Part shown: positions 1-53,110 of the stretch, piece after piece | Layout of the letters: every line of letters begins with the position of its first letter | How positions within the stretch are numbered: position 1 is the stretch's first letter | IMG/VR virus record: IMGVR_UViG_3300031784_000013 | Location: 1 to 64,000 of that record | DNA from: a virus | Reading direction: 5' to 3' (one strand) | DNA length: 64,000 nucleotides | The notes under the pieces: model-generated | Database searches by the model: none | What the model saw: only the letters and a program-made list of their open reading frames with translations | What the model was told of the DNA's origin: nothing | Made by a program: the position numbers and the translations under genes

Positions 1-3000
1 ATTTAATTTTTTAACATCTCCTAATCCATATTCTATATTGCAAATATTTGTTTTTAATCTACCATCAGAAAAAAATGGTATTATTTCACCACCTGCACCA
101 ATTTCTAATCCAAATCCAACAAATGAAGAAAGATTATCTGCAAAAAATCTATTTGCCATGAATGAACAGTCATGAACATTTGTTAAACCATAACCAAATG
201 CTCCACTATAATATCCACTTACTGTGTTACCATATCCACCTAACACAGCAGAATAGTTTCCACAAGCTGTATTAAAAGCTCCACCACCAACAAATGAATA
301 GTTTACACTAGCTGTATTATTTGTACCTCCACCAACAAATGAATATCCTCCACTAGCTGTGTTACGAAAACCACCACTAACTGTTGTAGCATAATAACTA
401 GCTGTGTTACAAAAACCACCACCAACAATAGAATGTAATCCACTAGCTGTGTTACAAAAACCACCACCAACAATAGAACGTAATCCACAAGCTGTATTAC
501 CATATCCACCTAACACAGCAGAATAACATCCACTAACACTGTTACTAGCACCTCCTCCTACAAATGAATAGTTTCCAATAGCTGTATTACCTTGTCCACC
601 TAAAGCAGCACTACAATTACCAGAAGCAGTGTTTGAGACACCGCATCTTATAGTTGAATTACATCCTGTACCTGCAATCATAATACCACCACCACCAGCT
701 GTATATTGTGTTAATATACCAGATGCTCCAACACAAACCGCACATCCTGAAGTTGCCAATCCTGTTATACATGCAGTTCCTGCTCTAAGAATTGGAGTAC
801 ACATTGAAGTTGTACCACAGATTAATGGACTATTTACAGATGCGGCACCACACACAACACCACCACCACCACTAACAAGGGAAGCCTGTAAATTATTTAC
901 ATAGAACGTGCATGAGTTAGGAGCATTTATGTTACATCCAATTGCTGCCGAAAAGTTACCAGATACTGTAATACCACATCCTCCTAATACTGTTGAGCAG
1001 TTACCACATACTATATTGTTAAATCCTCCTAATGCCGATGAAGTAACACCAAGTACTGTATTTCTAGATCCACCTACTATAGACGAACATGCACCTACTG
1101 CTATATTTTGGAATCCACTACCAACAAATGACATTGAGCCTGCGTTGCAAATTGTTGGAGCTACAGTGAATGCACAAGATGCTAATGCCCATGTACCACC
1201 TGTTGTATTGTTACCAACACCACCTGCAACTACAGCACCATAAGCTAAACAACCACTTGTTGAATTGCAAACATTGTTACAGTTACCTCCTCCAATAAAT
1301 GAGTTAACTCCTTGAGCTATATTTTTACAACCACCGCCTATGAAGGCATAATTTCCACTTACAATATTACCACAACCACCACCTATAAATGAATAATTAC
1401 CACTAGCTGTGTTACTTGAACCACCGCCAATAAACGAAACATTATAACGAATGTTGTTATTTATACCACCGCCTATAAATGAACCAAATCCATTACAATT
1501 AATTGTATTACTACTACCACCAACAATAGATGAAATACCAACATCACATATTCTATTACAATTACCACCCCCTATAAAAGATATGCAAGCACTTCCTGTT
1601 GTACCAAGAATGTTGTTATCTACACCACCAACAATAGATGAACCGTCAATTGAATCAGATGCGCTACTAATACTATTACCAAACCCTCCAACTATCACAG
1701 GGTATGAAGGTTGGAATGCCACATTACTACATATTGTATTGCAAAAGCCTGTACCAATAAATGAACCTCTAGTATTACATATTTTATTATTAAAACCACC
1801 ACCAATAAACTGCTCACAACTAATACCATCTATAGTATTTTGATCTCCATTAATAATTGTTGCAAAATTTCCATCAATAATGCAGTTTCCGTAACCACCA
1901 ATTATAGTTGAGCAATTTCCGCACATATAATTCAACTGACCACCAAGAATTGATGACGTGTTAGCAATTGAAATAATATTACAATTACCACCACCAATAA
2001 TTGACACCGCACCACCATTACTATTATTATTACCACCAACAATACTTGAACGAACACCACCACTAATTGTGTTGTTATACCCTGCACCAATAAAACCTTG
2101 TGAGCCATTAACTGTATTACAATATCCACCACTAATTGTTGAATTAGCAGCAAACGCACAAATTGTATTAAAAAGACCACCACTAATTAAGCTACCATAA
2201 TCTGAACTAATTGTATTACAGTTACCACCACCAATAAATGAGAAGTCTCCAACAGCAGTATTATTACAACCACCACCTGCAAATGAATAATCTCCTGAAG
2301 ACACGTTACTAACTCCATCTCTTACAGAAGAACATGCTCCTGCACCAAGAATAATTACAGCACTAGAGCCAACGTTTATACCAGAAGACCCAGAAGTTCC
2401 ATCAGAACCAGTGGAGCCTGAAGTACCAGAAGTTCCACTGCTTCCAGAATTTCCACTAGATCCACTAGTACCACTTGTTCCTCCAGTTCCATCTGTTCCA
2501 GATGACCCAGAAGATCCTGATGTTCCAGTGGTACCAGAAGAACCACTTGTACCTGTTGTTCCTGAAGTACCTGACGTTCCTGAAGGAGCATTGAATGTGG
2601 TTTGAGAATAGGAATAATATGTATTACCCTCTGTGTAGAATATGATATCATAAGGACTGCCAGTTATATTCTGAGCAATTATCTTACAATAAACTCTATC
2701 TGTATTGCTTAAGGATATAGAAGAAAGGAACGTATCTACATAGATCTGTTGAATCAGGCCTAGGTTATATGTTAAATTTATTATGTTTGTTGTACCTAAT
2801 AGAGTACCTGTTGTGCCATCCCATTTGTAAACTTCAACATACACTTCAAAATTAGCTGCTCCATTATTTAATTGAACGTGTAAAGTCCACGCCCACTGAC
2901 CAGCAGGAATAAATGTAACACCTGGTACACCACTGTCTGATGCATATGTTTGAAGAGTTTGCGTAGCACCACCAGCAATATTTGTTGTAAATGATTGCTG

Positions 3001-4185
3001 AGCACCTCCACTAGGAGCTGGACTCCATTGTTTATATGTAGGAGTACCAAAAGCAGAACTTGTATTAATTGATTCGTTCAAGTAATAAATTTGACCACCA
3101 GAAATACCATCTTGTCCAGAAGAACCAGATGTGCCTGATGAACCAGATGTACCAGTGGTACCACTACTTCCAGAGCTACCAGAACTACCACTAGTTCCTG
3201 CTGAACCATTAGTTCCTGATGTACCACCAGTAGATGACGTACCAGAACTTCCAGAAGAACCGCTTGAACCAGATGTAGTGATTGGGAGAGCAGCTAATGA
3301 ACCATCACCTTTTATATATTGAGAAGATGTACCAATAGCTGTAATGTTGATTGTTCCAGACGTTGTTACAGGACTGTTAGCAACACTGAATGCTGGAGGC
3401 ACTGTAAGTCCTACAGAAGAAACAGTTCCTGGTGTGTAACCAAGAATTGTAGCTATATCACCAGCTGTAATAGGGCTGGCTGCTGTAACAAGTCCTTTTG
3501 CATTAACAGCAAACTTAAGAGGAGTTACAGTACCATAAACATTTGAGTTTACGTTCTGTAGAAGAAGTGTAACAGGACTACCTGTAAATCCAGAACCAAC
3601 AACATCTCCAATAAAGTTTAGTGGTTGTGGAGGAACTACTAGAGCAGTGGTGCTTAGGCTTGTTACCAAACCTTTAGCATTCACTGTTACAACAGGAATT
3701 GTAGAACCTGATCCGTATGTACCAGGAGCAGAGTTTACTGTAGCTAGCGTAAGAGCTGCTGCACCAGGACCTGATGCTGTTCCATCACCAGTGAGTGATG
3801 TAATATAATTTCCTGCTGGTTGATATGATGTTGAATCTAGTGTACCATCACCCTTTACAAACTGAGAAGCTGTCCCACCAGTGGTGATATGTTTTGCAGC
3901 CTTGAGGTTTCCTGTAAACTCAAGAGTGAAGTTACCTCCAATAGTAGTGTTCTGGATGAGAGCACCACCTAGTTGTACAGGAGAACTTATTGTTGGTTGT
4001 ATAATACCATTTGTGAAGATATAGCCAATACCAGAGTTGGTGAAGGCTTGATTAATCTTCTGAATGACAACTTGAAGGTTGTCATTTGTATTAACACCAA
4101 TGTACAGCAAATCCTCTCCTGTGTAAAATACACAGGTGGAACTAAGTAAGACTGGACAAGGATTAGGTGAACAATATTGGGTCAT
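1..4185 (-). CDS. Long tail fibre / receptor-binding protein (>=1395 aa, truncated at window edge) with Ser/Thr collagen-like segments, Gly/Cys-rich 15-aa beta-roll repeats and C-terminal peptidase S74 chaperone domain
   Basis: Absent from the ORF track because it has no stop in the window. ATG at 4185 gives MTQYCSPNPCPVLLSSTCVFYTGEDLLYIGVNTNDNLQVVIQKINQ. The same frame at positions 120-1 reads VGFGLEIGAGGEIIPFFSDGRLKTNICNIEYGLGDVKKLN (SDxRLKxNI is the S74 autocleavage motif). GSS/GTS triplet blocks at ~3120-3280 and ~2385-2585. Confidence 0.9.
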   Translation of the reverse strand, partial: MTQYCSPNPCPVLLSSTCVFYTGEDLLYIGVNTNDNLQVVIQKINQAFTNSGIGYIFTNGIIQPTISSPVQLGGALIQNTTIGGNFTLEFTGNLKAAKHITTGGTASQFVKGDGTLDSTSYQPAGNYITSLTGDGTASGPGAAALTLATVNSAPGTYGSGSTIPVVTVNAKGLVTSLSTTALVVPPQPLNFIGDVVGSGFTGSPVTLLLQNVNSNVYGTVTPLKFAVNAKGLVTAASPITAGDIATILGYTPGTVSSVGLTVPPAFSVANSPVTTSGTINITAIGTSSQYIKGDGSLAALPITTSGSSGSSGSSGTSSTGGTSGTNGSAGTSGSSGSSGSSGTTGTSGSSGTSGSSGQDGISGGQIYYLNESINTSSAFGTPTYKQWSPAPSGGAQQSFTTNIAGGATQTLQTYASDSGVPGVTFIPAGQWAWTLHVQLNNGAANFEVYVEVYKWDGTTGTLLGTTNIINLTYNLGLIQQIYVDTFLSSISLSNTDRVYCKIIAQNITGSPYDIIFYTEGNTYYSYSQTTFNAPSGTSGTSGTTGTSGSSGTTGTSGSSGSSGTDGTGGTSGTSGSSGNSGSSGTSGTSGSTGSDGTSGSSGINVGSSAVIILGAGACSSVRDGVSNVSSGDYSFAGGGCNNTAVGDFSFIGGGNCNTISSDYGSLISGGLFNTICAFAANSTISGGYCNTVNGSQGFIGAGYNNTISGGVRSSIVGGNNNSNGGAVSIIGGGNCNIISIANTSSILGGQLNYMCGNCSTIIGGYGNCIIDGNFATIINGDQNTIDGISCEQFIGGGFNNKICNTRGSFIGTGFCNTICSNVAFQPSYPVIVGGFGNSISSASDSIDGSSIVGGVDNNILGTTGSACISFIGGGNCNRICDVGISSIVGGSSNTINCNGFGSFIGGGINNNIRYNVSFIGGGSSNTASGNYSFIGGGCGNIVSGNYAFIGGGCKNIAQGVNSFIGGGNCNNVCNSTSGCLAYGAVVAGGVGNNTTGGTWALASCAFTVAPTICNAGSMSFVGSGFQNIAVGACSSIVGGSRNTVLGVTSSALGGFNNIVCGNCSTVLGGCGITVSGNFSAAIGCNINAPNSCTFYVNNLQASLVSGGGGVVCGAASVNSPLICGTTSMCTPILRAGTACITGLATSGCAVCVGASGILTQYTAGGGGIMIAGTGCNSTIRCGVSNTASGNCSAALGGQGNTAIGNYSFVGGGASNSVSGCYSAVLGGYGNTACGLRSIVGGGFCNTASGLHSIVGGGFCNTASYYATTVSGGFRNTASGGYSFVGGGTNNTASVNYSFVGGGAFNTACGNYSAVLGGYGNTVSGYYSGAFGYGLTNVHDCSFMANRFFADNLSSFVGFGLEIGAGGEIIPFFSDGRLKTNICNIEYGLGDVKKLN
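397..490 (-). repeat. Near-perfect 45-bp tandem repeat (15-aa unit GL[H/R]SIVGGGFCNTAS) within a longer degenerate repeat array (~230-620 and ~950-2330)
   Basis: actagctgtgttacaaaaaccaccaccaacaatagaa(t/c)gtaatcc occurs twice in tandem; flanking units keep the GGGxxNxAxGxxSxI pattern. Confidence 0.85.
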
Positions 4186-24725: not shown

Positions 24726-27700
24726 TTACTTGGTTGCCCTTACAATGCCACCGTTTCTAATTGTGGTTGTATTGGTTGTTGTAGAACTAGCTCCTGTTGC
24801 TTTAGCAGATGCTAAAGCTAGTTTTTCAGATAGAGCTTTCTGTTCCGCAGGAGTTAGATCATTCATCATGGTATCAAACATTGCAAGAGTATTCATGTTG
24901 TTCGCTCTGAAACGCGGATCAAATCTATAGTTATAAAGATTCTCGTATGTCTGAAGAGTTCTATTCTCTAACTGATTCTGCATGTATTTAGAAGCAATAG
25001 AGCTAAGAGCAGCTTGTGATGTAGCCTTTGTATTAGAAAGAGCTTCTTGTTGTCTGCTGTATTGCTGATCAAAAGCCTGTAGATTGTTAAGGTTAGCCTG
25101 ATTTAGAAGATCTCTATTCTCAGCATACACTTTATCTTTCATAACTTGATTCAACTTGAATTGCTCACCAAGCACTTTTTGATTAGCTGCATACTTCTCA
25201 GCATTCAAAGCTGCTAGAGCAGCTGGATTGTAGCCCACCATTCTTTGAGTAGCTCTGTAATCAGCTTCATTCTCATTAATAATCTCTTGTAGAGAAATAT
25301 CAAAAGGAACGTTTAGTTGTGGTTGGATAGTCTGCACTTGTACAGGCTCAACTTGATTTGTTGCAAGAGCAAGCATTTCACCAGCCAATTGACGTGGGTC
25401 AAGAGGTTGTGCATTACTAGGTCTTAGATAAGGAATAATCTGATTAGCAAGTGTCATCCAGTCAATCTTACCTTCTTCACTTTCTGTCTGTTGATCAGCA
25501 CCAGGTCTATAGAAAGGACTGTAGAATGGTCTAATTTCTGGAAGCTTACCTAACGTTGGTTGCCAGCTAGACATCTGTGCCAATGTTTGACGAGGCTTTT
25601 TAATACCAGCATCTATAACGCTTTGAGGAACTTTAACTGGACCAAATGGATCTCTTTTAGGAACTATAGGTAATGCGTTAACAGTTACTTGTGGAAGATT
25701 TGTTGTACCAGTTTGAGCTTTTTCAATATCTACAAATCCTCCATTTTTTAATTCATTTGTACCTCGCATTTCAACAGATCTTTTTAAACCAAGACGGTCT
25801 GAAACTTTTGCATTCTTTAAATAATCGTCTATAAGTGCGCTATGCCCACCTTTCGAAACACCAAATGTTGGAAAGACCACTGGCTGATATTGGTTAGAAG
25901 ATTTTGAAGGATAGATTGGTTTAGGTAAAGATTTACCACTAACTTTTTCAAGATCTTTCAAATATCCAGCAAGCTCAGATTGTAATAACTGAGGATTATT
26001 CATCTGATCAGCAAATCCCATTTTATTAGAATTTTCGTAACCAAGAAATCTTAATTTTGAGTTAGGATCATTCTTCAATAGACTAGACATTGTTCTAAGT
26101 GACAGTGGATAACTATCACCAGATAAGCTACTTGCTGGATAAAATAGTCCAGTATTTTTTTGGTCAACATGTTGTAAAGCTTGTTTAAGCATACCTGAAA
26201 CATTATTTCTATCTGCAAATAAACTAGGTAGTAGCTCTGTAGAATACATACCTGGCTCATATTGTGCAAGAACTGGAGAATTACGAAGTCTTGCACCAGC
26301 GTACATGTCTACTATCTTATCACCAACATTTTTATAGAATGGATACGAGTAAAATTGATCTTCCATTTGACCTCTCATATCCTTATATATCATACCATCT
26401 TTTTGATAAAGTGTAGAGTAAGCATCAGGTTTTCTCGTTACACTACCGTCTACAGGATCTATTGCAATAACGTCTCTATCTATTGGTCTTTCATAAGGTG
26501 AGAAATAAGATGATTTACTTGGAGGATTATATATATCATCTCGAACTTGATTAAGTGTACGTTCACTATTAAGTTCATAATTCCATGATGTGTCATCAAA
26601 GCCAGCGGTTCTATTAGCATACTGAGCTGCTAAGTCTGGATTACCTTCTAATACTTTTACAGTTTGTGCATCAATTCCTACGTCTTTAAGTTTTTGTATA
26701 AACTCATCATGCTTATAGCCTGATAGATCAGTTAGTTTTCTACCTATATCATTTAGTGTAGTCATGTAACTTTGTGATACACCTGCTGATTGAATCTCTT
26801 TAGCCTTTGCAAGTAGTTTATTGTATTCATCAGAATATTTAGCAAGTTCAGCACTTGTAGCACCTCGTATGTTTGATTCTAAGTCCTTAACACTTCTACC
26901 AAAGTTTCTAACATCTGTAACTTTATCAACTCCTTGCATTACAGGTACATCTGCCATTGCAGCTTTTTCTAACTTCTTAACTTCGTTAACTATTCGCATA
27001 GCATCCTTAGTTTGATCAGCTATATTTGACAAGCTTATCATGTGAGGAGCAACAGCTTTCAAACCACCCATCACTGCTTGCTTACCTGGTTGTATAAGAG
27101 GTGCAGCCATCATAGAACCTATTCCAACTGCATCTAATGTGTTGAATGCCCCTTGTAAGTTTTGCTGATCAAATAATTGTTCCCCTGTTATAGGATTCAT
27201 TCCGCCAAGTGCTCCATACATAGCTGGTCCTGTAATTGGGGCAAGTGGATTTGCATAACCTGGTGCCATTAAACCAAGATCCAATAAAGTTTTTCCTGTA
27301 CCTGTTAAGTTTTGAAGAGGATCTTCTGCAAATCTAATAGTGCCTGGAACACCAGTTGCTTCATATCCAAACTTCTCAACATCTTTAACTAAACTAGATA
27401 TGTCTTTAGCAGTTTGTCCTCTCTTACCAGTGGTGGCAAGTGCTCTAGTGGCTCTTCCTATTGGACCTTTATCATTGATGTATTTTTTCTGTTCGTTAGA
27501 AAGAGATTGATAGAATGGGAATTGTTCATCGTAAGGAGTTACAGTGACTTCAGGAAGTAATGAACCTTCATACATCTTACCTTCTTCTGTAACACCTGTT
27601 TGAGCCTTCTTAATAGAAGCACCTTTCTTGGCTTGTTTAATCTTACCCTTTGCCAAAGCATCAGCCTCAAAACCATACTCTTCAGCTGTGTCATTAATAG

Positions 27701-29450
27701 CAGCCTGTAGAGAAGCAAGGTCTTGCTTCTTCTTAGCAATGTCTTTAAGCTTCATGTTAGCTCCAAGAATGTTGGCTTTGTATGATTCGAAAGAAAGAAG
27801 ATCTTGTGGCGTAATAACTTCTAAGTTATCAAGTTTCTCAGTGGACTTTTCTACAATCTTATTTTGCTTCTGCTCAGTTTTAGAAAGATCAGCAACGTAA
27901 TGTTTAAACTTCTTACCCTTTGCTTTATCATCACCCATTAGAGATGCACCAAAGCTTGGTATTTGTAGGTTGCCATATACAGTTAAACTGCTATCACCAT
28001 CTGTACCATTCTTAAGTTGTACAGCTGGTTCTCCTCTTTCCACTTCTACAGGACTGTCACCATAAGTGATGCCAATACCAGTGTTGCCTTGTCCATCAGA
28101 CTCATCGTGTGACTTTCCTCTGAACATAACAGTTTCTCCACCATCAGGTAGATATGGATTATAAGACATAGGTTCAGCATATCCACCCCAGTGGGTTTCA
28201 AGATCACCGCCCATAGCAAATTGTTCTCTTCCTGTGTACATTGCACGTTCACTAGGAGGGGTATAGTTTTTCAAATGTCCACCTGCACGTAATGTATCCA
28301 TAGTTGGATCAGGCTGCAACAATTGACTTAATTTATAATTACCAAACTGATTAATCATTTGTGGATTTATCATACCACCATCTCTCACATGAGAGTAGTT
28401 TTGTTGTTGCAATCCTTGGACACCCTGATTGAAAGCCATTGATGTAATGTTTCTATCAGTAACATCTCTTGCTTGTTGTGTCTTCTCAGCCTTTTTGTCA
28501 AGAAGATCACCAATTTTTTCACCAGCAAACTTTCCAACCATTCCTCCTAATGGACCAAAAAATACATTACCCACTGTACTCCCAACACCACCTCCAAGTT
28601 TACTAGCACCACTAGGACCATATCCTTTTGGATTTCCAATACCAACAGTTAATTTTGAAGCAGCATCAAATCCACCTTCATTTCCAAACTTAGTTAGGAA
28701 GTCTTTTCCAAACTGAGCTTGTTCTAAGTCTGTGTAAATAGTGTTAGGAGCAAACGTGTTTGCTATCTCTGTACCATTCTTTGCTAGAACAGTTCCTGTG
28801 CCATAGATTGGAAAGAACTCTGATCCAGTGTTTACATTATCTTCTGGACGAACATATCTTCTCTGAACTTGTTCTGGACGTGTCATAGAAGCTTGAAGAG
28901 CAACATCACTAACACCAGCCATTTGCTGAGCTTCCTTCATGATGTTTTTCTCATCCTTCATTTGCTGGATTCCTCCAACTATGTTTCCAACATTCTGAGC
29001 AAAGACAGCTGGTCCACCAGCTTTATCAATACCTTTGCTAATGCCACCAAGAATTGCACCCCCCGCAGCCTTCTTTAACTTCTTACCATTCTTAGCACCA
29101 GCTCCTTTGGAAGCACTACCTATTGCATTTCCAAGTTGGGTGAGAGCATCAGTGAATCCTGATTGTTTACCACCAGTCTTCTCTTCATAAGAAGCAAGAT
29201 CCATTGCTTGCTTATTACGCATATCTTGAGTTGATCCAGTGACAAACATATCATTCTGGTCATACAACTGCTGAAAGTTCATTGGTTGAGGGTTAAACTG
29301 AGGAGCTGTACTACCTTGAATCATAGCTCCCACTTGAGCTTTCTTCAAAGCTTTCCCATGAATCTTCATAAAAGATTCTTCTGTAGGAAACTTCTTGTAA
29401 AATTCCTTCTCAGACTTAACACCTGCTATCTTTAAAATTTGAGCCTTCAT
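24726..29450 (-). CDS. Virion cargo protein (1574 aa), crAss cargo-protein-1-like, modular
   Basis: GKSHDE...GIGI...PVEVERGE motif typical of crAss-like cargo proteins; Gly-rich hydrophobic helices; Gln/Asn-rich helical C-terminus; repeated xQxG/xxxGG motifs; no Cys. Confidence 0.7.
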   Translation of the reverse strand: MKAQILKIAGVKSEKEFYKKFPTEESFMKIHGKALKKAQVGAMIQGSTAPQFNPQPMNFQQLYDQNDMFVTGSTQDMRNKQAMDLASYEEKTGGKQSGFTDALTQLGNAIGSASKGAGAKNGKKLKKAAGGAILGGISKGIDKAGGPAVFAQNVGNIVGGIQQMKDEKNIMKEAQQMAGVSDVALQASMTRPEQVQRRYVRPEDNVNTGSEFFPIYGTGTVLAKNGTEIANTFAPNTIYTDLEQAQFGKDFLTKFGNEGGFDAASKLTVGIGNPKGYGPSGASKLGGGVGSTVGNVFFGPLGGMVGKFAGEKIGDLLDKKAEKTQQARDVTDRNITSMAFNQGVQGLQQQNYSHVRDGGMINPQMINQFGNYKLSQLLQPDPTMDTLRAGGHLKNYTPPSERAMYTGREQFAMGGDLETHWGGYAEPMSYNPYLPDGGETVMFRGKSHDESDGQGNTGIGITYGDSPVEVERGEPAVQLKNGTDGDSSLTVYGNLQIPSFGASLMGDDKAKGKKFKHYVADLSKTEQKQNKIVEKSTEKLDNLEVITPQDLLSFESYKANILGANMKLKDIAKKKQDLASLQAAINDTAEEYGFEADALAKGKIKQAKKGASIKKAQTGVTEEGKMYEGSLLPEVTVTPYDEQFPFYQSLSNEQKKYINDKGPIGRATRALATTGKRGQTAKDISSLVKDVEKFGYEATGVPGTIRFAEDPLQNLTGTGKTLLDLGLMAPGYANPLAPITGPAMYGALGGMNPITGEQLFDQQNLQGAFNTLDAVGIGSMMAAPLIQPGKQAVMGGLKAVAPHMISLSNIADQTKDAMRIVNEVKKLEKAAMADVPVMQGVDKVTDVRNFGRSVKDLESNIRGATSAELAKYSDEYNKLLAKAKEIQSAGVSQSYMTTLNDIGRKLTDLSGYKHDEFIQKLKDVGIDAQTVKVLEGNPDLAAQYANRTAGFDDTSWNYELNSERTLNQVRDDIYNPPSKSSYFSPYERPIDRDVIAIDPVDGSVTRKPDAYSTLYQKDGMIYKDMRGQMEDQFYSYPFYKNVGDKIVDMYAGARLRNSPVLAQYEPGMYSTELLPSLFADRNNVSGMLKQALQHVDQKNTGLFYPASSLSGDSYPLSLRTMSSLLKNDPNSKLRFLGYENSNKMGFADQMNNPQLLQSELAGYLKDLEKVSGKSLPKPIYPSKSSNQYQPVVFPTFGVSKGGHSALIDDYLKNAKVSDRLGLKRSVEMRGTNELKNGGFVDIEKAQTGTTNLPQVTVNALPIVPKRDPFGPVKVPQSVIDAGIKKPRQTLAQMSSWQPTLGKLPEIRPFYSPFYRPGADQQTESEEGKIDWMTLANQIIPYLRPSNAQPLDPRQLAGEMLALATNQVEPVQVQTIQPQLNVPFDISLQEIINENEADYRATQRMVGYNPAALAALNAEKYAANQKVLGEQFKLNQVMKDKVYAENRDLLNQANLNNLQAFDQQYSRQQEALSNTKATSQAALSSIASKYMQNQLENRTLQTYENLYNYRFDPRFRANNMNTLAMFDTMMNDLTPAEQKALSEKLALASAKATGASSTTTNTTTIRNGGIVRATK

Positions 29451-29451
29451 A

Positions 29452-32400
29452 TCAGTTGTATTTATCCAGCCAGTTATCCTTGTCTGGGTTATTTGTAAAG
29501 TTAAGTAATTGATTTAGTTTTTTCATAGGTTGGGCATCTAATTGATTGATTCCCACGTCACCACCATTTCGTTTGGTCTTAGGTAAAGATCTAACATAGT
29601 CAGCTATTGACTTAGCCTCTTCTGGAGATATCTTCTCTGTTTTCCATTCAATCTTTTCATTTTTAGATTGATCTTTTCCAAATGATTTTGGTGCAAAGCC
29701 TTTCACTTTATCAATGTAATCAACATCATTTCTTTTCAAGTAGTAATTTACAAATCTTGGCTCAAGTGCTTTCCCTGGTGCATTGTGCATCAAAGTTGTC
29801 AAATCAATAATCTGGTCTTCAGAAAGATCTGGATACTTAGCCTTCAATTTATGATAGTTATCAACAGCTAATGCTAATGAAGATTTAACCTGACCTTCAA
29901 AAGAGTCTAAGTCGTATTTGTAGAAATTACCTCTTTCAGATAAATCTTTTTGTTGAAATTCACCAACGCTTCTAGGTGTTCTGTACGGACTATAATCAGA
30001 ATCTTCAGAGTCAAGGCTTTTTACAAAGTCTTGATATGAGCTAAATTCTTTTTGAACATTATGAGCGTTCTTATTCCAATAGTCCTTTTTCCAATTATCT
30101 TCTTCACCAAAATTGTAATCATAGATTTCTCTAGCTCTTCTTGCATAGGGTAGAAGACTGTCTGGAACAATATCTTTTGGATTAGATGCAAATTCACCAA
30201 ACTTAGTTTCTTGCCCAGCAATTCCTATTTGATTCATTATCAATTTATTGAACGAATCAATTGGCATGTTAGAACCTTTACCAAGATCACTGTAGACAGT
30301 CTTATAGACATCTGCATATCTTTGTAAATTTTTGTCTGGAGCCAATTCATTTTTAACATTCAATCCATCTACTTTATTATTAAAGAAAGTTAAGTTTGAG
30401 GTATCAAATTTTGAATATTGACCAGAGTAAGGATTTTTACCTTTTAATACATTGATCTTGTCTTGGTTCTCCTTTTTTATAGATGTTACTTTATCTGGAT
30501 CATATCGATATGTAATTCCTCCATCAAAAGTTTTATAACCCTTTTTATATCTGTTCATCAATTCAGATTCAGATACATCTTCAATTTCAACTTTGTCTCC
30601 TCCTGCGTTGTTTGCAACCTTAAAATACTTTTTCCCATCCTTCACAAATTCATTAACAATCAAAACTGCATGATTTGGATAGAGATCATTTTCATTTCTA
30701 AAATCAACTTCTCCAGGAAAGCGTGAAAATGTATTACCTTTCTTTCTAGCATATTGGAATATATCACCTACACCAAATCCTTCCTTCTCAGGATTAGATC
30801 TGTAATATCCTTCGTCCATTGCATTGTCTGCAAATGTTGCATTTCCAGTGTATGTATCTTTAGTCTGACCTTTGTCAAATTTCACACCTGCAATATTTGA
30901 AACCATATAACAAACTCCATTTATACAATTCATATCTCCCTCAGAGGTGTCGATATTATTGTCTTTGTAATATGGAGTGGTGTAGTTTTTTGATTTCAAA
31001 ACATCATCATACATATTGAACTTGGACAAGTAATCTTGTCTTGAAACTTCTTGTTGAGCAGGAGTATCTTTACCTGTTTGTGCAACAGGAAACTCTGTAA
31101 CCTTCTTACCATTGAACTTGTAATTCTTTCCTGGTTGCATAAGCTTTGTGTCACCAGTATCAGAAATACCAAGAAGTGGTTCGTACACTCCTTCCATTGT
31201 AATGTTGTTACTACCTATCTCAACAGGCTTTCCCCAGTTATCTGGATTCCAATAACCTAGATTATCTTTAGTTATACCACCATTCTTTTGCTTCTGTACT
31301 GGTTGTTGATTTTGCAATGCAGATATTGTAGCAGCTGCACCACCAGCAATTGGTAATGTTGCAGAAGGAAGATTATTTAAAGTTTCACTCAAGATTTTGA
31401 AATTCTTAGGAGTTTTCTCCATAATCTCATACAATCTCAAGATGCTTTTATTACCTCCTGTTTTATTATAAAGATCATAATGATCCTCTATCATTTGAGG
31501 AGTTATTTCATCATAGTAATCTTTTATTTTTCCTCTTCGTAATAAACTTTGTCTAACCTCAGCAGCAAAAGGTAGTTTCTCCATTCCTCCACTACCTGTT
31601 AGGAAATAATCAAGAGCTGGATAAAAACCATATCCCCACTGTTGATTTGATTTTGAAAAATCAACATCCTCTAACTGTCCTTCTGAGAGAGATGAGTCAG
31701 GAACTGAGCTTGGTTGTTTTTTTAATTCTAGCTCAGAAAGTTTATCATCAAGGTTTGTTCGCCTTCGATTTCTTTGAAAAATGTGGCCCATTTCATGATC
31801 AAATATACGTCTTATGTCTCCTGGAATTAGATTCTCACCCATGTACATTGCAGCAACTGAACCAGGACCATATCCTCCATCTCCACCTCTACGACCTGCA
31901 AATGCATTATCTGCATCGATGAAAGGATCATTATTTTTGATAAACTTTAAGTTTCTAATTTCCTCGATTATATCATCAGGTTTTAGTTTTTTGAAACCAC
32001 TAAGCTCACCTGATTTAAGACCATGCAAGAAAAACTCACCCCATGATTCTACAGGTTTTCCCCAAGATTTATGATCTCTCCCAAAATTTTTATTTATCAT
32101 GTATTGGAGTCTTCTTCTACCTTCTGGAGTATCAATTCTATCAATAGTTTTTTGCTTTAATTCTTGAAGCAAATCCATGTGAGGATGATCCAATTCTGTA
32201 TATGGAAGTTGTGGTTGATTAGGAACAGTTGATGCGTTAGGAGTGGAAGAGGCTAATACATTATCTGCCATCATTTGAGGAGATGGTGCTTGTGAAATAG
32301 CTATATTGTCAATGCCTTTAACAAGGTTTTGACCAATACCTTTTAAACTTAGTCTGCCAATATCATCAATCATACCTACACCAGGTATAGCATTGACTGG

Positions 32401-34269
32401 GTCTCCAAGAGCATCCAATCCAAAATTAAAAGCATTCTTTCCAAATGATGAATAGCTATCTAGCCAACCACCAGGTTTTTGAAATCCCCATGCTTGAGAA
32501 GGTGTTTGTTCTTTTCCTGTAATCAACTGCATCATCTCCTTTTGTGGAGCACCCATCAGCTCACCAACATGTCCATAGAGATTTGCCATTCCCTGAGACA
32601 TTGCATTTTTTATACGTTCATCCTTACCCTCTACAACAATCTCAGGAAGTTCCATACCTTCATAAATCTTCCCACCTTCTTGCATACTCTTTGGTTTCCA
32701 ATCAAGGCCATTCTGATAGAATCTCATTTCTTGACCATTCTGTGCAGAAGCCATTGTCTTCTTTGCATATTTACCTTTGCTAGGAGCAGCACCAGCTACA
32801 CGTGCGTATGTGAATCCTACAGAGCCAGGCATAGAAGCACCATTCATTGCAATAGGCGCAACTTCTTCATTACCTTTGGCAATAACATTCATCAACTTAA
32901 TTAAACCGCTTTCGCCAGCCGCTTGAATAGTTCTATCGAGTGATTGATTACCTTTTAGTTTTTCCTTGGCTCTTTCTAAATCTTCTTTTGTAAACTCTTT
33001 CCCTTTTCTAATATCATAAACCCCTTTATCAAACATTAGATATCGAAGAGCATTCAAGTCACTTTTGAATTCTTGAGGATCATTTCTTATATGTAAGGCT
33101 TGAGATCTTCTTATATCATCTTTTTGATTAATAGGTTGATAATTTCCTGTAACGGGATCTATAGTATAAAATGATTTATTAAACTCTGAAAACGGCAACA
33201 TTGTAGACGTTATTAACGAATCTTCAAAAGCAGTAGTATTATCTATTGCATGTCCAATTTCATGAGCTAGAACAGTTTCAAACATTTCAGGAGTCTTAGT
33301 ATGATCTGGATGTATTTCAATACCAAGTCCTGTATAGCGAGAAGCAGGTCGTCCTTTATAATAAGATGGTTCAATTTGAATAAATCCAGGCTCTTGAACT
33401 GATTCTAATGCACCCATTCTTGATTCTCTAGCACTAGATAGCCATTCTCCCATTTGAGGACGTATAGTTGATCCTTCTTTACGATAGATAGCGTTCCCTG
33501 GCACGTCTTCATAGTATCCAGTGTTCTTCATACGTCTTTCGTACTCTGGACTAGAAACCCACGACTTGTAGAATTCAGCCATGTCCCATCCTGGAATATC
33601 TGTATTATCTCCTGACTTTGGTATATACTGGGGATAACCAGTTAATTTATCAGGATCATTATACTTAGTCATTATTGGAGCTGATACAACAACTTCAGGA
33701 AGGTCATACTCCTTCGCAATGGTTGCATCCTTTTTTTCCTGAATCTTTTTATTCATGTATTCAGAAACACCATTCTGAGCAATTGGAATAATTCCACCTT
33801 GCTGGAAGTCTAATACACCTGTTCCTCGTTTGTAATTTTTTGCAAACTTTTTAGCTTTTCTATCTGTAGGAAATTCAATGTAGCTGTTTGTGCTATCAGC
33901 ATAATTGTAAGCATCATCTCCTAAGTACTTTAACTCTCCATCAATATTTCTAATAGTAGGATAAACCCTTCTATCAGCAGATTCCATAAAATGAGTGCTT
34001 CTTCCTTCTTGACCTGGGATTTGAATAGATCCGTAATTGGCATCATACAATCCCTTCACCCAATCAAGATTCTTATTTGCGTTTAGTATTTGATCAATCT
34101 TCTTACCACGCTGGGCAATTTCTCCTCCATACTCAAATTGTCCTCCCCACGCAGGGGAATAGTTTCTTCCTTCTGTATTATATCCTACACCAACAAATCC
34201 TTCAGGAAGGCTAACGTTTGATTCGTTAGCGTTGTCTGCTTTACCAAAGTTGTCTAACCATCCTTTCAT
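29452..34269 (-). CDS. Polyvalent virion cargo protein (1605 aa): two HExxH metallopeptidase domains, CHAP/NlpC-P60-like amidase and lysozyme-like domain
   Basis: VLAHEIGHAID (~33250-33264) and IFDHEMGHIFQ (~31783-31797), each with a downstream Glu. NCINGVC (~30910-30927) plus NHAVLIV (~30670) gives a Cys/His pair. GIAGQETKFG...SVGEFQQ...LMHNAPG (~30200-29770) is transglycosylase-like. Confidence 0.7.
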   Translation of the reverse strand: MKGWLDNFGKADNANESNVSLPEGFVGVGYNTEGRNYSPAWGGQFEYGGEIAQRGKKIDQILNANKNLDWVKGLYDANYGSIQIPGQEGRSTHFMESADRRVYPTIRNIDGELKYLGDDAYNYADSTNSYIEFPTDRKAKKFAKNYKRGTGVLDFQQGGIIPIAQNGVSEYMNKKIQEKKDATIAKEYDLPEVVVSAPIMTKYNDPDKLTGYPQYIPKSGDNTDIPGWDMAEFYKSWVSSPEYERRMKNTGYYEDVPGNAIYRKEGSTIRPQMGEWLSSARESRMGALESVQEPGFIQIEPSYYKGRPASRYTGLGIEIHPDHTKTPEMFETVLAHEIGHAIDNTTAFEDSLITSTMLPFSEFNKSFYTIDPVTGNYQPINQKDDIRRSQALHIRNDPQEFKSDLNALRYLMFDKGVYDIRKGKEFTKEDLERAKEKLKGNQSLDRTIQAAGESGLIKLMNVIAKGNEEVAPIAMNGASMPGSVGFTYARVAGAAPSKGKYAKKTMASAQNGQEMRFYQNGLDWKPKSMQEGGKIYEGMELPEIVVEGKDERIKNAMSQGMANLYGHVGELMGAPQKEMMQLITGKEQTPSQAWGFQKPGGWLDSYSSFGKNAFNFGLDALGDPVNAIPGVGMIDDIGRLSLKGIGQNLVKGIDNIAISQAPSPQMMADNVLASSTPNASTVPNQPQLPYTELDHPHMDLLQELKQKTIDRIDTPEGRRRLQYMINKNFGRDHKSWGKPVESWGEFFLHGLKSGELSGFKKLKPDDIIEEIRNLKFIKNNDPFIDADNAFAGRRGGDGGYGPGSVAAMYMGENLIPGDIRRIFDHEMGHIFQRNRRRTNLDDKLSELELKKQPSSVPDSSLSEGQLEDVDFSKSNQQWGYGFYPALDYFLTGSGGMEKLPFAAEVRQSLLRRGKIKDYYDEITPQMIEDHYDLYNKTGGNKSILRLYEIMEKTPKNFKILSETLNNLPSATLPIAGGAAATISALQNQQPVQKQKNGGITKDNLGYWNPDNWGKPVEIGSNNITMEGVYEPLLGISDTGDTKLMQPGKNYKFNGKKVTEFPVAQTGKDTPAQQEVSRQDYLSKFNMYDDVLKSKNYTTPYYKDNNIDTSEGDMNCINGVCYMVSNIAGVKFDKGQTKDTYTGNATFADNAMDEGYYRSNPEKEGFGVGDIFQYARKKGNTFSRFPGEVDFRNENDLYPNHAVLIVNEFVKDGKKYFKVANNAGGDKVEIEDVSESELMNRYKKGYKTFDGGITYRYDPDKVTSIKKENQDKINVLKGKNPYSGQYSKFDTSNLTFFNNKVDGLNVKNELAPDKNLQRYADVYKTVYSDLGKGSNMPIDSFNKLIMNQIGIAGQETKFGEFASNPKDIVPDSLLPYARRAREIYDYNFGEEDNWKKDYWNKNAHNVQKEFSSYQDFVKSLDSEDSDYSPYRTPRSVGEFQQKDLSERGNFYKYDLDSFEGQVKSSLALAVDNYHKLKAKYPDLSEDQIIDLTTLMHNAPGKALEPRFVNYYLKRNDVDYIDKVKGFAPKSFGKDQSKNEKIEWKTEKISPEEAKSIADYVRSLPKTKRNGGDVGINQLDAQPMKKLNQLLNFTNNPDKDNWLDKYN

Positions 34270-51556: not shown

Positions 51557-53110
51557 TTAGAACTGTGGAATTTCTTCGATTAGAACAGTTCGTGACAAGT
51601 CTTCGATGAATACATCGCAACGATCTTGCATCCAGATTTCATAGCCTGGGAATTTGTTGGCAGAAGACATACCCTGAGACTTAGCAAAGCCAAGGTGGTG
51701 TCTACGTCCATCGATATAACCCCAAGTCATAGAAGGAGCACCTTTCATTCTCACTTCACGAATGTTGTTCACCATAGAGCCATCAGACATTGGAGACACA
51801 TCAAATACCATGAACACTGGAGTTGACTTCTTGTTCTGTCCAAATTCCAAGTTGGATTGAGGAAGATCAAGTTCTTTCAAGTGGATAAGTTCCACACGAC
51901 CAGTTTCACGAGTAACCATTGCATCGAATGCAAAGTTATAAGTGATGTGTTGTCCTTCTCCTTGCATGTATCTGTTTCCAGAATCTGCCATGAAGGTAAG
52001 GCCAGAGTTCAATGCATCAGTTTTCAAAGCCTGCTGGAACACGTCAAAGCCAGCTTCGTTAGTGTACATTTTCACTCGTCTGTCCTTAACATCCACACGT
52101 CTGTAGAACAAGTCTCCAAACACGGAACGGATAAGGTTTGCAGAGAATTCTCCACGGTTGTATTGTACCAAGTTACCATTGTTACGCATTCTGTGATAAA
52201 CACCAGCAGATACACGCTTCAATTCTTGCTTAGATCCATTAGTTTTTACAGTGCCTGGCTTAGACCAGATCATTCGCTTCACCTTAAGTTCAAGCATTGC
52301 TTTTCTCAACATGAATTCTACGAATGGCTCCCACTTAACATCGTTACGAGTTAGAGGAAGTTGGTTTCTACGCTGAGGAGCATACACCAAGATATCAAGA
52401 GGCTTACCAGAAGCATCACGCATAGTCTTGTCATCAGCCCATGCAGTAACTTGGTGCTCAAAACCATATCCAGAACCAAGAGATTCGAACATAGTGATTT
52501 TCTCACCAAGTCTTGGTAAACCAAGAAGGTCCTGATCAAATTCACCAATTGCAGCATCAACTAGTTCTAGTTCAATACCAATTTGCAAGAAGGTAGGGCT
52601 TACAAAGTCTAGGATTGGGTTGTCAGACACCAATGTAAAGGTGTAAAGGAAACCTGCATTCCAAGGAACTGGATCTTTTACAGCATACCATCTTGGACCA
52701 TACTGACGAGAACCTACAGAAACGATAGCGTTCTTAGAGAATTCGTTAGTGTCCAATACCACCTGAAACTCCTGACCATCGATACCTGGCTTGCTCAACT
52801 CAGCAGTGGAGCTAGGGATGTCAATGATTTTAGGGAATTTGTAAGGAACTTGAACGTCCCACTTCCAAGAATCGCTGTTGTTGTCGATGTAGTAAGGAGT
52901 GGACTTGTTGATCATATCAAGGAAGTCGTTGCTGTACAATGAGCTCTGAGTGTACAAGGAGATGATCTTCTTGTCATAGTCAGCTGGCTCAGTGGAGTGA
53001 AACGACTCCAAGTGATTTGAATCAGTTAGCTTTCCTACGGCACGTTTGTCCATTGACGCAACGCGAGCATAGGTAAAGCCTGTTAAACCTGGGATTGTTT
53101 GAATTGCCAT
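51557..53110 (-). CDS. Major capsid protein (crAss-like HK97 fold, 517 aa)
   Basis: Size, position after portal and scaffold, LTDSNHL..WKWDV..KMYTNEAGF..ELIHLKELD motifs, strong downstream terminator. Confidence 0.9.
   Translation of the reverse strand: MAIQTIPGLTGFTYARVASMDKRAVGKLTDSNHLESFHSTEPADYDKKIISLYTQSSLYSNDFLDMINKSTPYYIDNNSDSWKWDVQVPYKFPKIIDIPSSTAELSKPGIDGQEFQVVLDTNEFSKNAIVSVGSRQYGPRWYAVKDPVPWNAGFLYTFTLVSDNPILDFVSPTFLQIGIELELVDAAIGEFDQDLLGLPRLGEKITMFESLGSGYGFEHQVTAWADDKTMRDASGKPLDILVYAPQRRNQLPLTRNDVKWEPFVEFMLRKAMLELKVKRMIWSKPGTVKTNGSKQELKRVSAGVYHRMRNNGNLVQYNRGEFSANLIRSVFGDLFYRRVDVKDRRVKMYTNEAGFDVFQQALKTDALNSGLTFMADSGNRYMQGEGQHITYNFAFDAMVTRETGRVELIHLKELDLPQSNLEFGQNKKSTPVFMVFDVSPMSDGSMVNNIREVRMKGAPSMTWGYIDGRRHHLGFAKSQGMSSANKFPGYEIWMQDRCDVFIEDLSRTVLIEEIPQF

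Follow-up and report, generated by a model that had tools for sequence, protein, structure and literature searches.

The 64,000-nucleotide stretch of viral DNA analysed here (the window; positions 1 to 64,000 of IMG/VR record IMGVR_UViG_3300031784_000013, an uncultured virus of 111 kb with a completeness estimate of 96%) carries on its minus strand two neighbouring genes for large proteins, P0001 (1605 residues) and P0002 (1574 residues). Their gene position suggests that a distant crAss-like phage packages and injects them as cargo (ejection) proteins of the virion. Both contain short motifs, here called words, which a first-pass annotation of this DNA had placed at module boundaries and had read as cleavage or loading sites that make the genes plug-in cassettes for injected effectors. 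The plug-in part of that proposal is strongly supported by the comparison of related sequences: one 12-residue seam joins many modules, cassettes swap between both cargo genes, and where relatives have gained or lost domains the breaks fall at words. With regard to what the seams do, the explanation that we favour, and to which we give an even chance, is that the words are the conserved disordered seams of a modular, uncut ejection protein of the polyvalent type. Coordinates are window positions unless stated otherwise.

Among relatives collected with the window’s own proteins as seeds, the seam has the consensus (E/K)(F/Y)GG-(D/E)IPS-AQNG and was found in 124 distinct instances. The search pattern itself fixed G3, G4, A9 and G12; at positions that it left free, I6 is present in 101, P7 in 95, Q10 in 118 and N11 in 85 of the 124. 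There are 27 types of left flank and 32 types of right flank, joined in 55 combinations. The left flank SLYDQKKF, for example, is followed across the seam by QEMRFYQNGLDW, KNDIEKISINDP, KKTLQDATRVD or EEDIKTIDLPEI, and no fewer than seven different left flanks stand before the right flank QEMRFYQNGLDW. When the relatives are cut at the seam, the pieces are modules of exact length, such as a 212-residue module present in 16 proteins and an N-terminal anchor of 53 residues, and these are combined in the architectures M0-M3, M0-M4-M3, M0-M4-M8-M3, M2-M3, M2-M8-M3 and M10-M4-M9. The 212-residue module (M4) is an SLT lytic transglycosylase, while other relatives carry PG_binding_1 and ART-PolyVal domains. 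Cassettes begin with AQxG and finish with xxGG, and serial cassettes are joined by the 12-residue seam.

A trivial explanation would be that the clustering of words is a composition artefact of proteins rich in glycine, glutamine and lysine, which we regard as very improbable. The loose pattern [hydrophobic][QKRA]xG indeed does not exceed composition-preserving shuffles (18 occurrences versus 14.5 expected and 16 versus 11.8 in the two proteins), and some P0002 words lie in glycine-rich N-terminal segments. The narrower words, however, do stand above such shuffles, with 4 occurrences of AQxG versus 0.9 and 0.4 expected and 7 of [QKR]xGG versus 2.5 and 2.1, and they are enriched in these two proteins only. 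The strict words A[QK]xG and [QKRE]xGG are enriched over the remaining proteome as well; the two proteins carry 8.2 strict words per 1000 residues versus 1.55 in the other 92 open reading frames of the 111-kb genome, an approximately fivefold density whose significance is inflated because the comparison is post hoc, the words having been defined from the same two proteins. As had been noted before, the neighbouring 901-residue, RNA polymerase and 1636-residue proteins show no clustering of words when counts are compared with shuffles. Moreover, a 12-residue seam, combinatorial flanks and modules of exact length cannot be chance, and for the core sites the artefact is refuted.

All words of the earlier list were found in P0001 and P0002 at the coordinates given for them. 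The two genes and the words to which we refer by residue number are as follows:

29452..34269, minus strand: P0001, cargo or ejection protein of 1605 residues, with a backbone of about 205 residues and three large cassette regions (open reading frame; short relatives).
24726..29450, minus strand: P0002, cargo protein of 1574 residues with usual relatives of about 940 residues; possible distant counterpart of crAss001 gp45 (C1).
P0001 words, minus strand: AQRG at residue 52 (~34116), AQNG at 164 (~33780), AMNG at 474 and AQNG at 509.
Further P0001 words, minus strand: MQEGG at residue 529, QKNGG at 994, AQTG at 1063 and KRNGG at 1566.
P0002 AQTG words, minus strand: residues 616 (~27605) and 1245 (~25718).

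Their placement at module boundaries was borne out for P0001, where the words lie in disordered linkers and indel or recombination breakpoints in relatives fall at 8 of the 11 listed words; for P0002 it stood only in part, 5 of the 13 listed words having breakpoint support, which together form 3 insertion loci. The remaining P0002 words, AQVG, both AKNG, AAGG, VRDGG, FAMGG, AKKG and IRNGG, lack such support in the sampled relatives. In a conservative cluster test with random word placement, 5 of 17 breakpoint clusters in P0001 lie no more than 5 residues from a word versus 1.7 expected (P = 0.015), and the further figure from the same test is 4 of 11 versus 1.3 expected (P = 0.03). We found 192 relatives of P0001 of similar length, all of them mosaic, with coverage of P0001 ranging from 8 to 90%. 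Ends of BLAST segments pile up at residues 51/55 (GGEI↓AQRG↓), 477 (AMNG↓) and 508/512 (↓SAQNG↓), and further at 993 (↓KQKNGG), 1066 (AQTG↓) and 1571/1572 (RNGG↓DV), the arrows marking the breaks.

What remains of P0001 without cassettes can be seen in complete minimal relatives of 204-215 residues, encoded on contigs of 34-226 kb, which consist only of the equivalents of P0001 residues 1-51, 477-535, 991-1084 and 1572-1605. An alignment of 24 short members shows a conserved backbone, made up of the N-terminal anchor, a copy of the capsid N-terminal peptide, the FYQNGLDW stretch, the small β domain and the WLDKY tail, and interrupted at four insertion hotspots. In the loci that were fetched, the sequence is identical through ...GGDIPSAQNGQEM(K/R)FYQNGLDWKPKSMQxGG, and four different cassettes follow directly after that GG. 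A profile search with the backbone returned at least 4,182 clusters at E ≤ 0.001; among the 150 listed clusters, length ranges from 228 to 2,080 residues. Diverse representatives have 7-13 words per 1000 residues, and the number of words grows with the length of the protein. The hotspots, all defined by the alignment of short members, and the parts of P0001 are given below; HSP denotes a high-scoring segment pair and pLDDT the predicted local distance difference test score of AlphaFold.

Hotspot 1: after SPAWGGQF.
Hotspot 2: within PSA↓QNG.
Hotspot 3: after KPKSMxxGG.
Hotspot 4: after the small β domain, at PVA(K/Q)↓xG.
34117..34269, minus strand: N-terminal anchor, residues 1-51 (MKGWLDNFG...SPAWGGQF), kept in about 105 of 120 relatives (coverage, HSP ends, alignment) and predicted to be disordered.
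34105..34137, minus strand: seam 1, FEYGG-EI-AQRG, residues 45-55, hotspot 1, with 90 HSP ends at 51/55; insertions begin here.
33769..33807, minus strand: seam 2, FQQGG-IIPI-AQNG, residues 155-167, left border of the zincin cassette; the copy in relative P0093 starts at this AQNG.
32881..33684, minus strand: zincin-like domain 1, residues 196-463, HEIGH at 335, AlphaFold pLDDT 70-90; weak Pfam matches to M48 / Zn_peptidase_2 and weak Foldseek matches to HExxH proteins.
32665..32850, minus strand: backbone residues 474-535 with AMNG, the mimic of the capsid N-terminus PGSVGFTYARVA, AQNG and FYQNGLDWKPKSMQEGG; hotspots 2 and 3; almost invariant in alignments, with 164 HSP ends at residue 508.
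31363..32205, minus strand: folded domain 2, residues 689-969, HEMGH at ~823 (AlphaFold; HExxH in the sequence).
31072..31296, minus strand: QKNGG, small β domain and AQTG, residues 992-1066, followed by hotspot 4 (HSP starts at 993, ends at 1066).
29575..31017, minus strand: C-terminal cassette, residues 1085-1565, which only some 15-20 of the 120 relatives have (coverage drop); no Pfam match, and the earlier label “CHAP+lysozyme” was not verified.
29455..29574, minus strand: KRNGG seam and C-terminal tail ...NFTNNPDKDNWLDKYN, residues 1566-1605, with 85 HSP starts at 1571/1572; the tail is kept in about 109 of 120 relatives.

The backbone contains a copy of the start of the major capsid protein: the capsid sequence MAIQTIPGLTGFTYARVAS (53057-53092) compares with SMPGSVGFTYARVAG inside P0001 (32794-32829). 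This copy is near-invariant across the backbone family and may therefore serve as a signal for targeting to the capsid or for docking. It is part of the backbone stretch GG-SIP[GSVGFTYAR...KKTMP]S-AQNG, and the sequence of the 12-residue seam reads like a shortened version of that stretch.

According to AlphaFold, only the small β domain of the minimal backbone folds (pLDDT 75-85), while the rest scores below 50 in spite of its many invariant positions. The possibility that the backbone is one compact domain carrying the cassettes as loop insertions was rejected on this basis. In a model of P0001 residues 1-1200, the folded blocks are 196-463, 689-969 and 1009-1062, and the ten words listed for this part of the protein all fall within linkers of pLDDT below 50 or, for AQTG at 1063, at the edge of one. 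Fold searches with the two models, including one of the small β domain against the PDB, yielded no clear counterpart; Z did not exceed 5.2 and Foldseek E did not fall below 0.026.

The ends of these proteins have a vocabulary of their own. WLD(N/S/K)(F/Y) occurs in P0001 at residues 4-8, 602-606 and 1600-1604 (~34250, ~32460 and ~29460), that is, at the extreme N-terminus, internally after GG and at the extreme C-terminus; relatives start with MK(x)WLDKY and end with (N)GGWLDKY(N), and crAss001 gp45 has NWLDTL near its C-terminus. As seen in relatives P0268, P0298, P0325, P0334, P0347 and P0356, some family members have an N-terminal four-cysteine zinc-ribbon-like module (C-x-C...C-x-x-C) before the WLD anchor, and others have a conserved MAKKLTSAKAKEILHDKSVHGHPLTDKQRRFF module in this place.

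In the P0002 family, P0002 itself is an expanded form. Its approximately 1,500 relatives are mostly of about 940 residues and correspond to P0002 residues 1 to ~630 plus 1242-1574. All three large cassette insertions found in the family (182-628 residues) are located at listed words, two of them at seams that are “empty” in P0002:

28707..28718, minus strand: “empty” seam AQFG, residues 245-248; in P0093 a zincin cassette of the P0001 type is inserted exactly here.
28278..28292, minus strand: “empty” seam LRAGG, residues 387-391; P0234 has a 182-residue insert, LRAGG↓EIITAQKG...LRAGG↓.
27540..27611, minus strand: left seam of the extra cassette, KKAQTG...LLPEVTV, residues 614-637 (HSP ends at 617-637; insert mapping).
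25752..27539, minus strand: extra cassette of about 600 residues, 638-1233, not present in the relatives of about 940 residues (insert mapping).
25680..25751, minus strand: right seam, LKNGG-FVDIEK-AQTG-TTNLPQVTV, residues 1234-1257, with 48 HSP starts at 1242.
24729..24761, minus strand: C-terminal IRNGGIVRATK, residues 1564-1574, a conserved family end with no indel evidence.

P0134, like the short forms in general, has one seam, to which both seams of the extra cassette align. The insert of P0093 at AQ(F/N)G (P0002 residue 245) is a 310-residue zincin cassette with 65% identity to P0001 residues 161-485. Conversely, the cassette of about 600 residues is also found inside P0001-family open reading frames of other phages, at four loci (L002, L008, L014 and L015), with 47-61% identity. 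The zincin and the 600-residue cassettes are thus common to both families, which means that cassettes move between the two genes, and that they do so at seams.

Several seams are followed, after 3 to 25 residues, by a strand LPEV(V/T)V or LPQVTV, which presumably recalls the TonB box of SusC-type transporters of Bacteroidota. These strands are located as follows:

~33690: P0001 residue 190.
~32640: P0001 residue 541.
~27550: P0002 residue 632.
~25690: P0002 residue 1252.

If the favoured explanation is correct, the seam would be an extended glycine-rich connector that is maintained by selection on the peptide. It would mark sites where a folded module is tolerated without disturbing the short docking peptides of the backbone, and it would allow the chain to pass through the tail in unfolded form. 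Being conserved, it would at the same time supply the short homology for swaps of modules between co-infecting phages. Synonymous variation is as frequent in the seam (5 of 12 codons) as in the flanks (18 of 52 and 5 of 19), which suggests that selection acts on the peptide and not on the DNA.

Several points weigh against this explanation. The DNA sample behind the synonymous comparison is small and closely related; scans with a degenerate seam pattern gave 5 loci in IMG/VR and 9 in metagenomes, too few and too closely related for a decisive test of synonymous sites. Several large breakpoints of P0001, at residues 144, 229, 523 and 1089, have no word. The weakest step is the delivery of the chain uncut, as would be the case for other podophage ejection proteins, by analogy with those of T7, N4 and crAss001 only. 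A plain spacer, furthermore, does not need ten or more conserved residues, which implies a sequence-specific reader of the seam, for which a protease, a component of the virion and a protein of the host are candidates; conserved disordered stretches usually bind a partner or are recognised by an enzyme. Finally, HExxH occurs in 109 of 118 complete members of at least 900 residues (92%) and in none below 300 residues, in a biased sample seeded with P0001, and this would also fit self-processing.

Could the seams then be protease recognition sites? The first-pass annotation had leaned on the Gly-directed maturation of viral core polyproteins, and in a reading of this kind the cargo polyproteins would be cut in the capsid or after ejection by the embedded HExxH zincin, by a Cys/His cassette or by an unrecognised enzyme. 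The products would be individual enzymes, and many of them would carry an LPEVVV strand, similar to a TonB box, close to their new N-terminus. We consider this possible, if rather doubtful. The seam is long, conserved, exposed and placed in disordered linkers, as are the sites of viral polyproteins, and the apparent selection on its peptide, in the small sample described above, is in line with recognition. HExxH-positive proteins have more seams in each length class from 600 residues up. N-terminal extension modules end in GG directly before WLDKY, which is otherwise N-terminal, so that a cut after GG would restore the normal end. Precedents exist as well: processing of polyvalent proteins by zincins has already been proposed (PMC5512222), and ejection proteins of giant phages are cut at short motifs (PMC10052503).

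Against cleavage, the minimal members of 204-215 residues have no HExxH and nothing that a cut could release, yet all four word sites are retained, and HExxH is absent from 60-80% of diverse multi-cassette representatives. Two natural gene splits (P0248/P0247 and P0253/P0239) are not at seams. The crAss001 protein gp45 is described and modelled as one continuous chain that spans tail and capsid, in a paper where proteolysis is not mentioned (PMC10172136). The logo of the seam, with E/K/Q at P4 and F/Y/Q/N at P3, is unlike the sites of adenain, (M/I/L)xGG↓x or (M/I/L)xGx↓G, which have a hydrophobic P4. With regard to a dedicated protease, the 96%-complete 111-kb genome has no match to Peptidase_C48 (PF02902, Ulp1-type), for which the control genome matched, the C5, C57 and C63 models not having been searched; it has none to the HK97-type S78 protease, for which the controls matched; and it has none to the T4-type S77 protease, a search in which the control failed too.

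Two other routes to separate products were rejected. Self-cleavage at Asn-Gly would need a constant Asn, and the third position of AQxG can be N, K, S, T, R, G, D or E, so that there is no Asn-dependent self-cut. Internal translation starts at seams were discarded since no start codon lies at a constant distance.

The most far-reaching form of the protease reading, which we hold to be unlikely, is that the seams are true processing sites, where the embedded zincin or another virion protease cuts at (F/Y)GG / AQxG, and that the seam doubles as a recombination joint. A tailed phage would in that case package effector polyproteins and release wall-degrading and host-modifying enzymes separately, several of them with a TonB-box-like N-terminal strand, and the recombination joint would let the phage population reshuffle the injected arsenal.

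A further explanation is historical. The seams could be gene-fusion scars of units that once were separate, with N-termini of the type M-K-x-WLDKY-x-IP-x-AQNG and C-termini of the type ...NGG-WLDKY; fusion head to tail would leave joints NGG-(WLDKY)-IPx-AQNG, and the words would be conserved only since the ends once mattered. N-termini like MKKWLDKYEIPEAQNG and C-termini like KKNGGWLDKYN are indeed common, the full NGG-WLDxY-xVPK-AQxG stands at some internal joints, e.g. in P0089, and P0001 itself has an internal GGWLDSY at residue 601. Scars without function would decay, however, whereas the seam persists between modules with less than 40% identity in their flanks and while synonymous changes accumulate in it. 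Moreover, insertions at the “empty” AQFG and LRAGG sites duplicate the word, which indicates ongoing insertion instead of old fusions. We therefore regard fusion scars as improbable.

Among known proteins, two groups come close to P0001 and P0002. Polyvalent proteins are virion proteins of phages and conjugative elements which string together unrelated enzyme domains, are highly mosaic and may be processed by zincins, as has been proposed (PMC5512222). P0001 resembles them in having two folded HExxH domains and a further cassette, and its relatives add SLT, PG_binding_1 and ART-PolyVal. The PolyVal models of Pfam have no match in P0001 or P0002, while ART-PolyVal matches the relative P0090 with E = 1.4e-12. 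The description of polyvalent proteins includes neither a junction peptide nor a minimal backbone (PMC5512222), whereas here we find a 12-residue seam, four hotspots and a disordered backbone of about 205 residues.

The second group consists of crAss001 gp45 and gp46 (C1/C2), which are located, like P0001 and P0002, between muzzle/tail genes and virion RNA polymerase genes. They are largely unstructured chains with short segments docking to the portal and the tail barrel (PMC10172136). The backbone of P0001 is likewise predicted to be disordered apart from its small β domain, and P0002 shares a glycine-rich hydrophobic N-terminal region with gp45; AAGG and the first AKNG of P0002 lie within this glycine-rich, possibly membrane-inserting region. 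A similar hydrophobic segment located after it is reminiscent of the part of gp45 that is predicted to be transmembrane. BLAST aligns P0002 334-474 with gp45 342-475 (29% identity, E = 1.2e-4), and hhalign gives 40% probability over the glycine-rich segment only, so that homology is not secure; a phmmer search against PDB sequences gave no match. Aromatic-GG words of gp45 at 207, 425 and 560 flank the segments 214-245 and 425-552 that are resolved by cryo-electron microscopy, which is as compatible with an uncut module boundary as with a cut one. Unlike P0001 and P0002, gp45 and gp46 are short (842 and 534 residues), have no recognisable enzyme cassettes and no reported seam consensus.

More remote systems resemble P0001 and P0002 in the way they work. 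In polymorphic toxins, the junction motifs VENN (CdiA) and PxxxxDPxGL (Rhs) lie at the point of cassette exchange, and the Rhs motif is also a self-cleavage site; these systems swap only the C-terminal toxin, which is paired with an immunity gene. The likeness, one of working and not of membership, is a conserved peptide directly at the boundary of an exchangeable cassette. Here, in contrast, the cassettes are internal, several per protein and part of a phage virion protein. Virion genes lie on either side of P0001 and P0002, with no small immunity-like open reading frame after them. Ejection core proteins of the T7 gp16 type carry a wall-degrading lytic transglycosylase on a large ejected protein, where it acts unreleased; unlike P0001 and P0002, gp16 has a fixed architecture with neither cassette seams nor length polymorphism across the family.

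Packaged proteins with repeated short motifs in flexible regions, as P0001 and P0002 putatively are, also occur among the prohead-protease substrates of phages (T4 gp21, HK97, phiKZ gp175, phiKZ/SPN3US gp245) and among those of the proteases of adenovirus (adenain), African swine fever virus (pS273R) and poxviruses (I7L). The substrates of gp245 in giant phages are cut at AXE↓ (PMC10052503). The seam differs from AXE and from (M/I/L)xGG↓x, and the S78 and C48 searches were without a match, as described above. In the literature searched there is no published description of this seam or backbone; as far as that search reaches, the seam consensus, the four fixed hotspots in a disordered backbone of about 205 residues and the exchange of cassettes between adjacent cargo genes appear to be new.

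CrAss-like phages rank with the most abundant known viruses and, to our knowledge, the functions of their cargo proteins are largely unknown. The seam offers a reading rule for thousands of unannotated giant phage proteins, which can be divided at the seam and annotated cassette by cassette. It also defines a minimal backbone that probably holds the packaging and ejection signals, and it shows that a putative set of injected enzymes is reshuffled between two genes and between phages. The seams would be natural permissive sites that tolerate foreign modules. Because candidate sites are now known to the residue, the proposal that polyvalent proteins are processed has become concretely testable.

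On the minus strand, the window holds a crAss-like virion block of large terminase, portal, major capsid protein and CrAss_Ring_1 tail ring protein, which continues with a virion protein of 1876 residues, P0001, P0002, the 901-residue protein, an RNA polymerase of 4248 residues and the 1636-residue protein. PHROGs has no family for P0001 or P0002, and the Pfam search with the two proteins returned zincin matches only, all sub-threshold. The closest cultured relative of the phage is Leptolyngbya phage Lbo-JY46, with a capsid protein identity of only 26%, and it was also the sole match of a tblastn search against cultured phages, through the small β domain (pLDDT 75-85 in our models, as given above). 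A 495-residue protein of Lbo-JY46 (locus L018, 8992-12503 of that sequence) begins with this same domain (51% identity) and has at its end, by eye, an SLT transglycosylase-like motif pattern; the next gene contains the words FQTGG, FQQGG and FGQNGLD. Such a seam-like vocabulary in Lbo-JY46 may predate the split of these phage lineages.

Glycine-rich words are also seen elsewhere in the genome. An open reading frame of at least 1395 residues that runs off the edge of the window (1-4185) is rich in GG (65 versus 50 expected); its AQxG and [QKR]xGG seam words do not exceed expectation, so that the glycine pattern there is of a different kind. Outside the window, at genome positions 91866-92564 and 97176-97553 (G000, minus strand), small lysine-rich open reading frames contain KKAQNG-LKAMT-LPQVT, MQAGG, MMKKGG and FKSGG, and these may encode further internal virion proteins with the same seam vocabulary.

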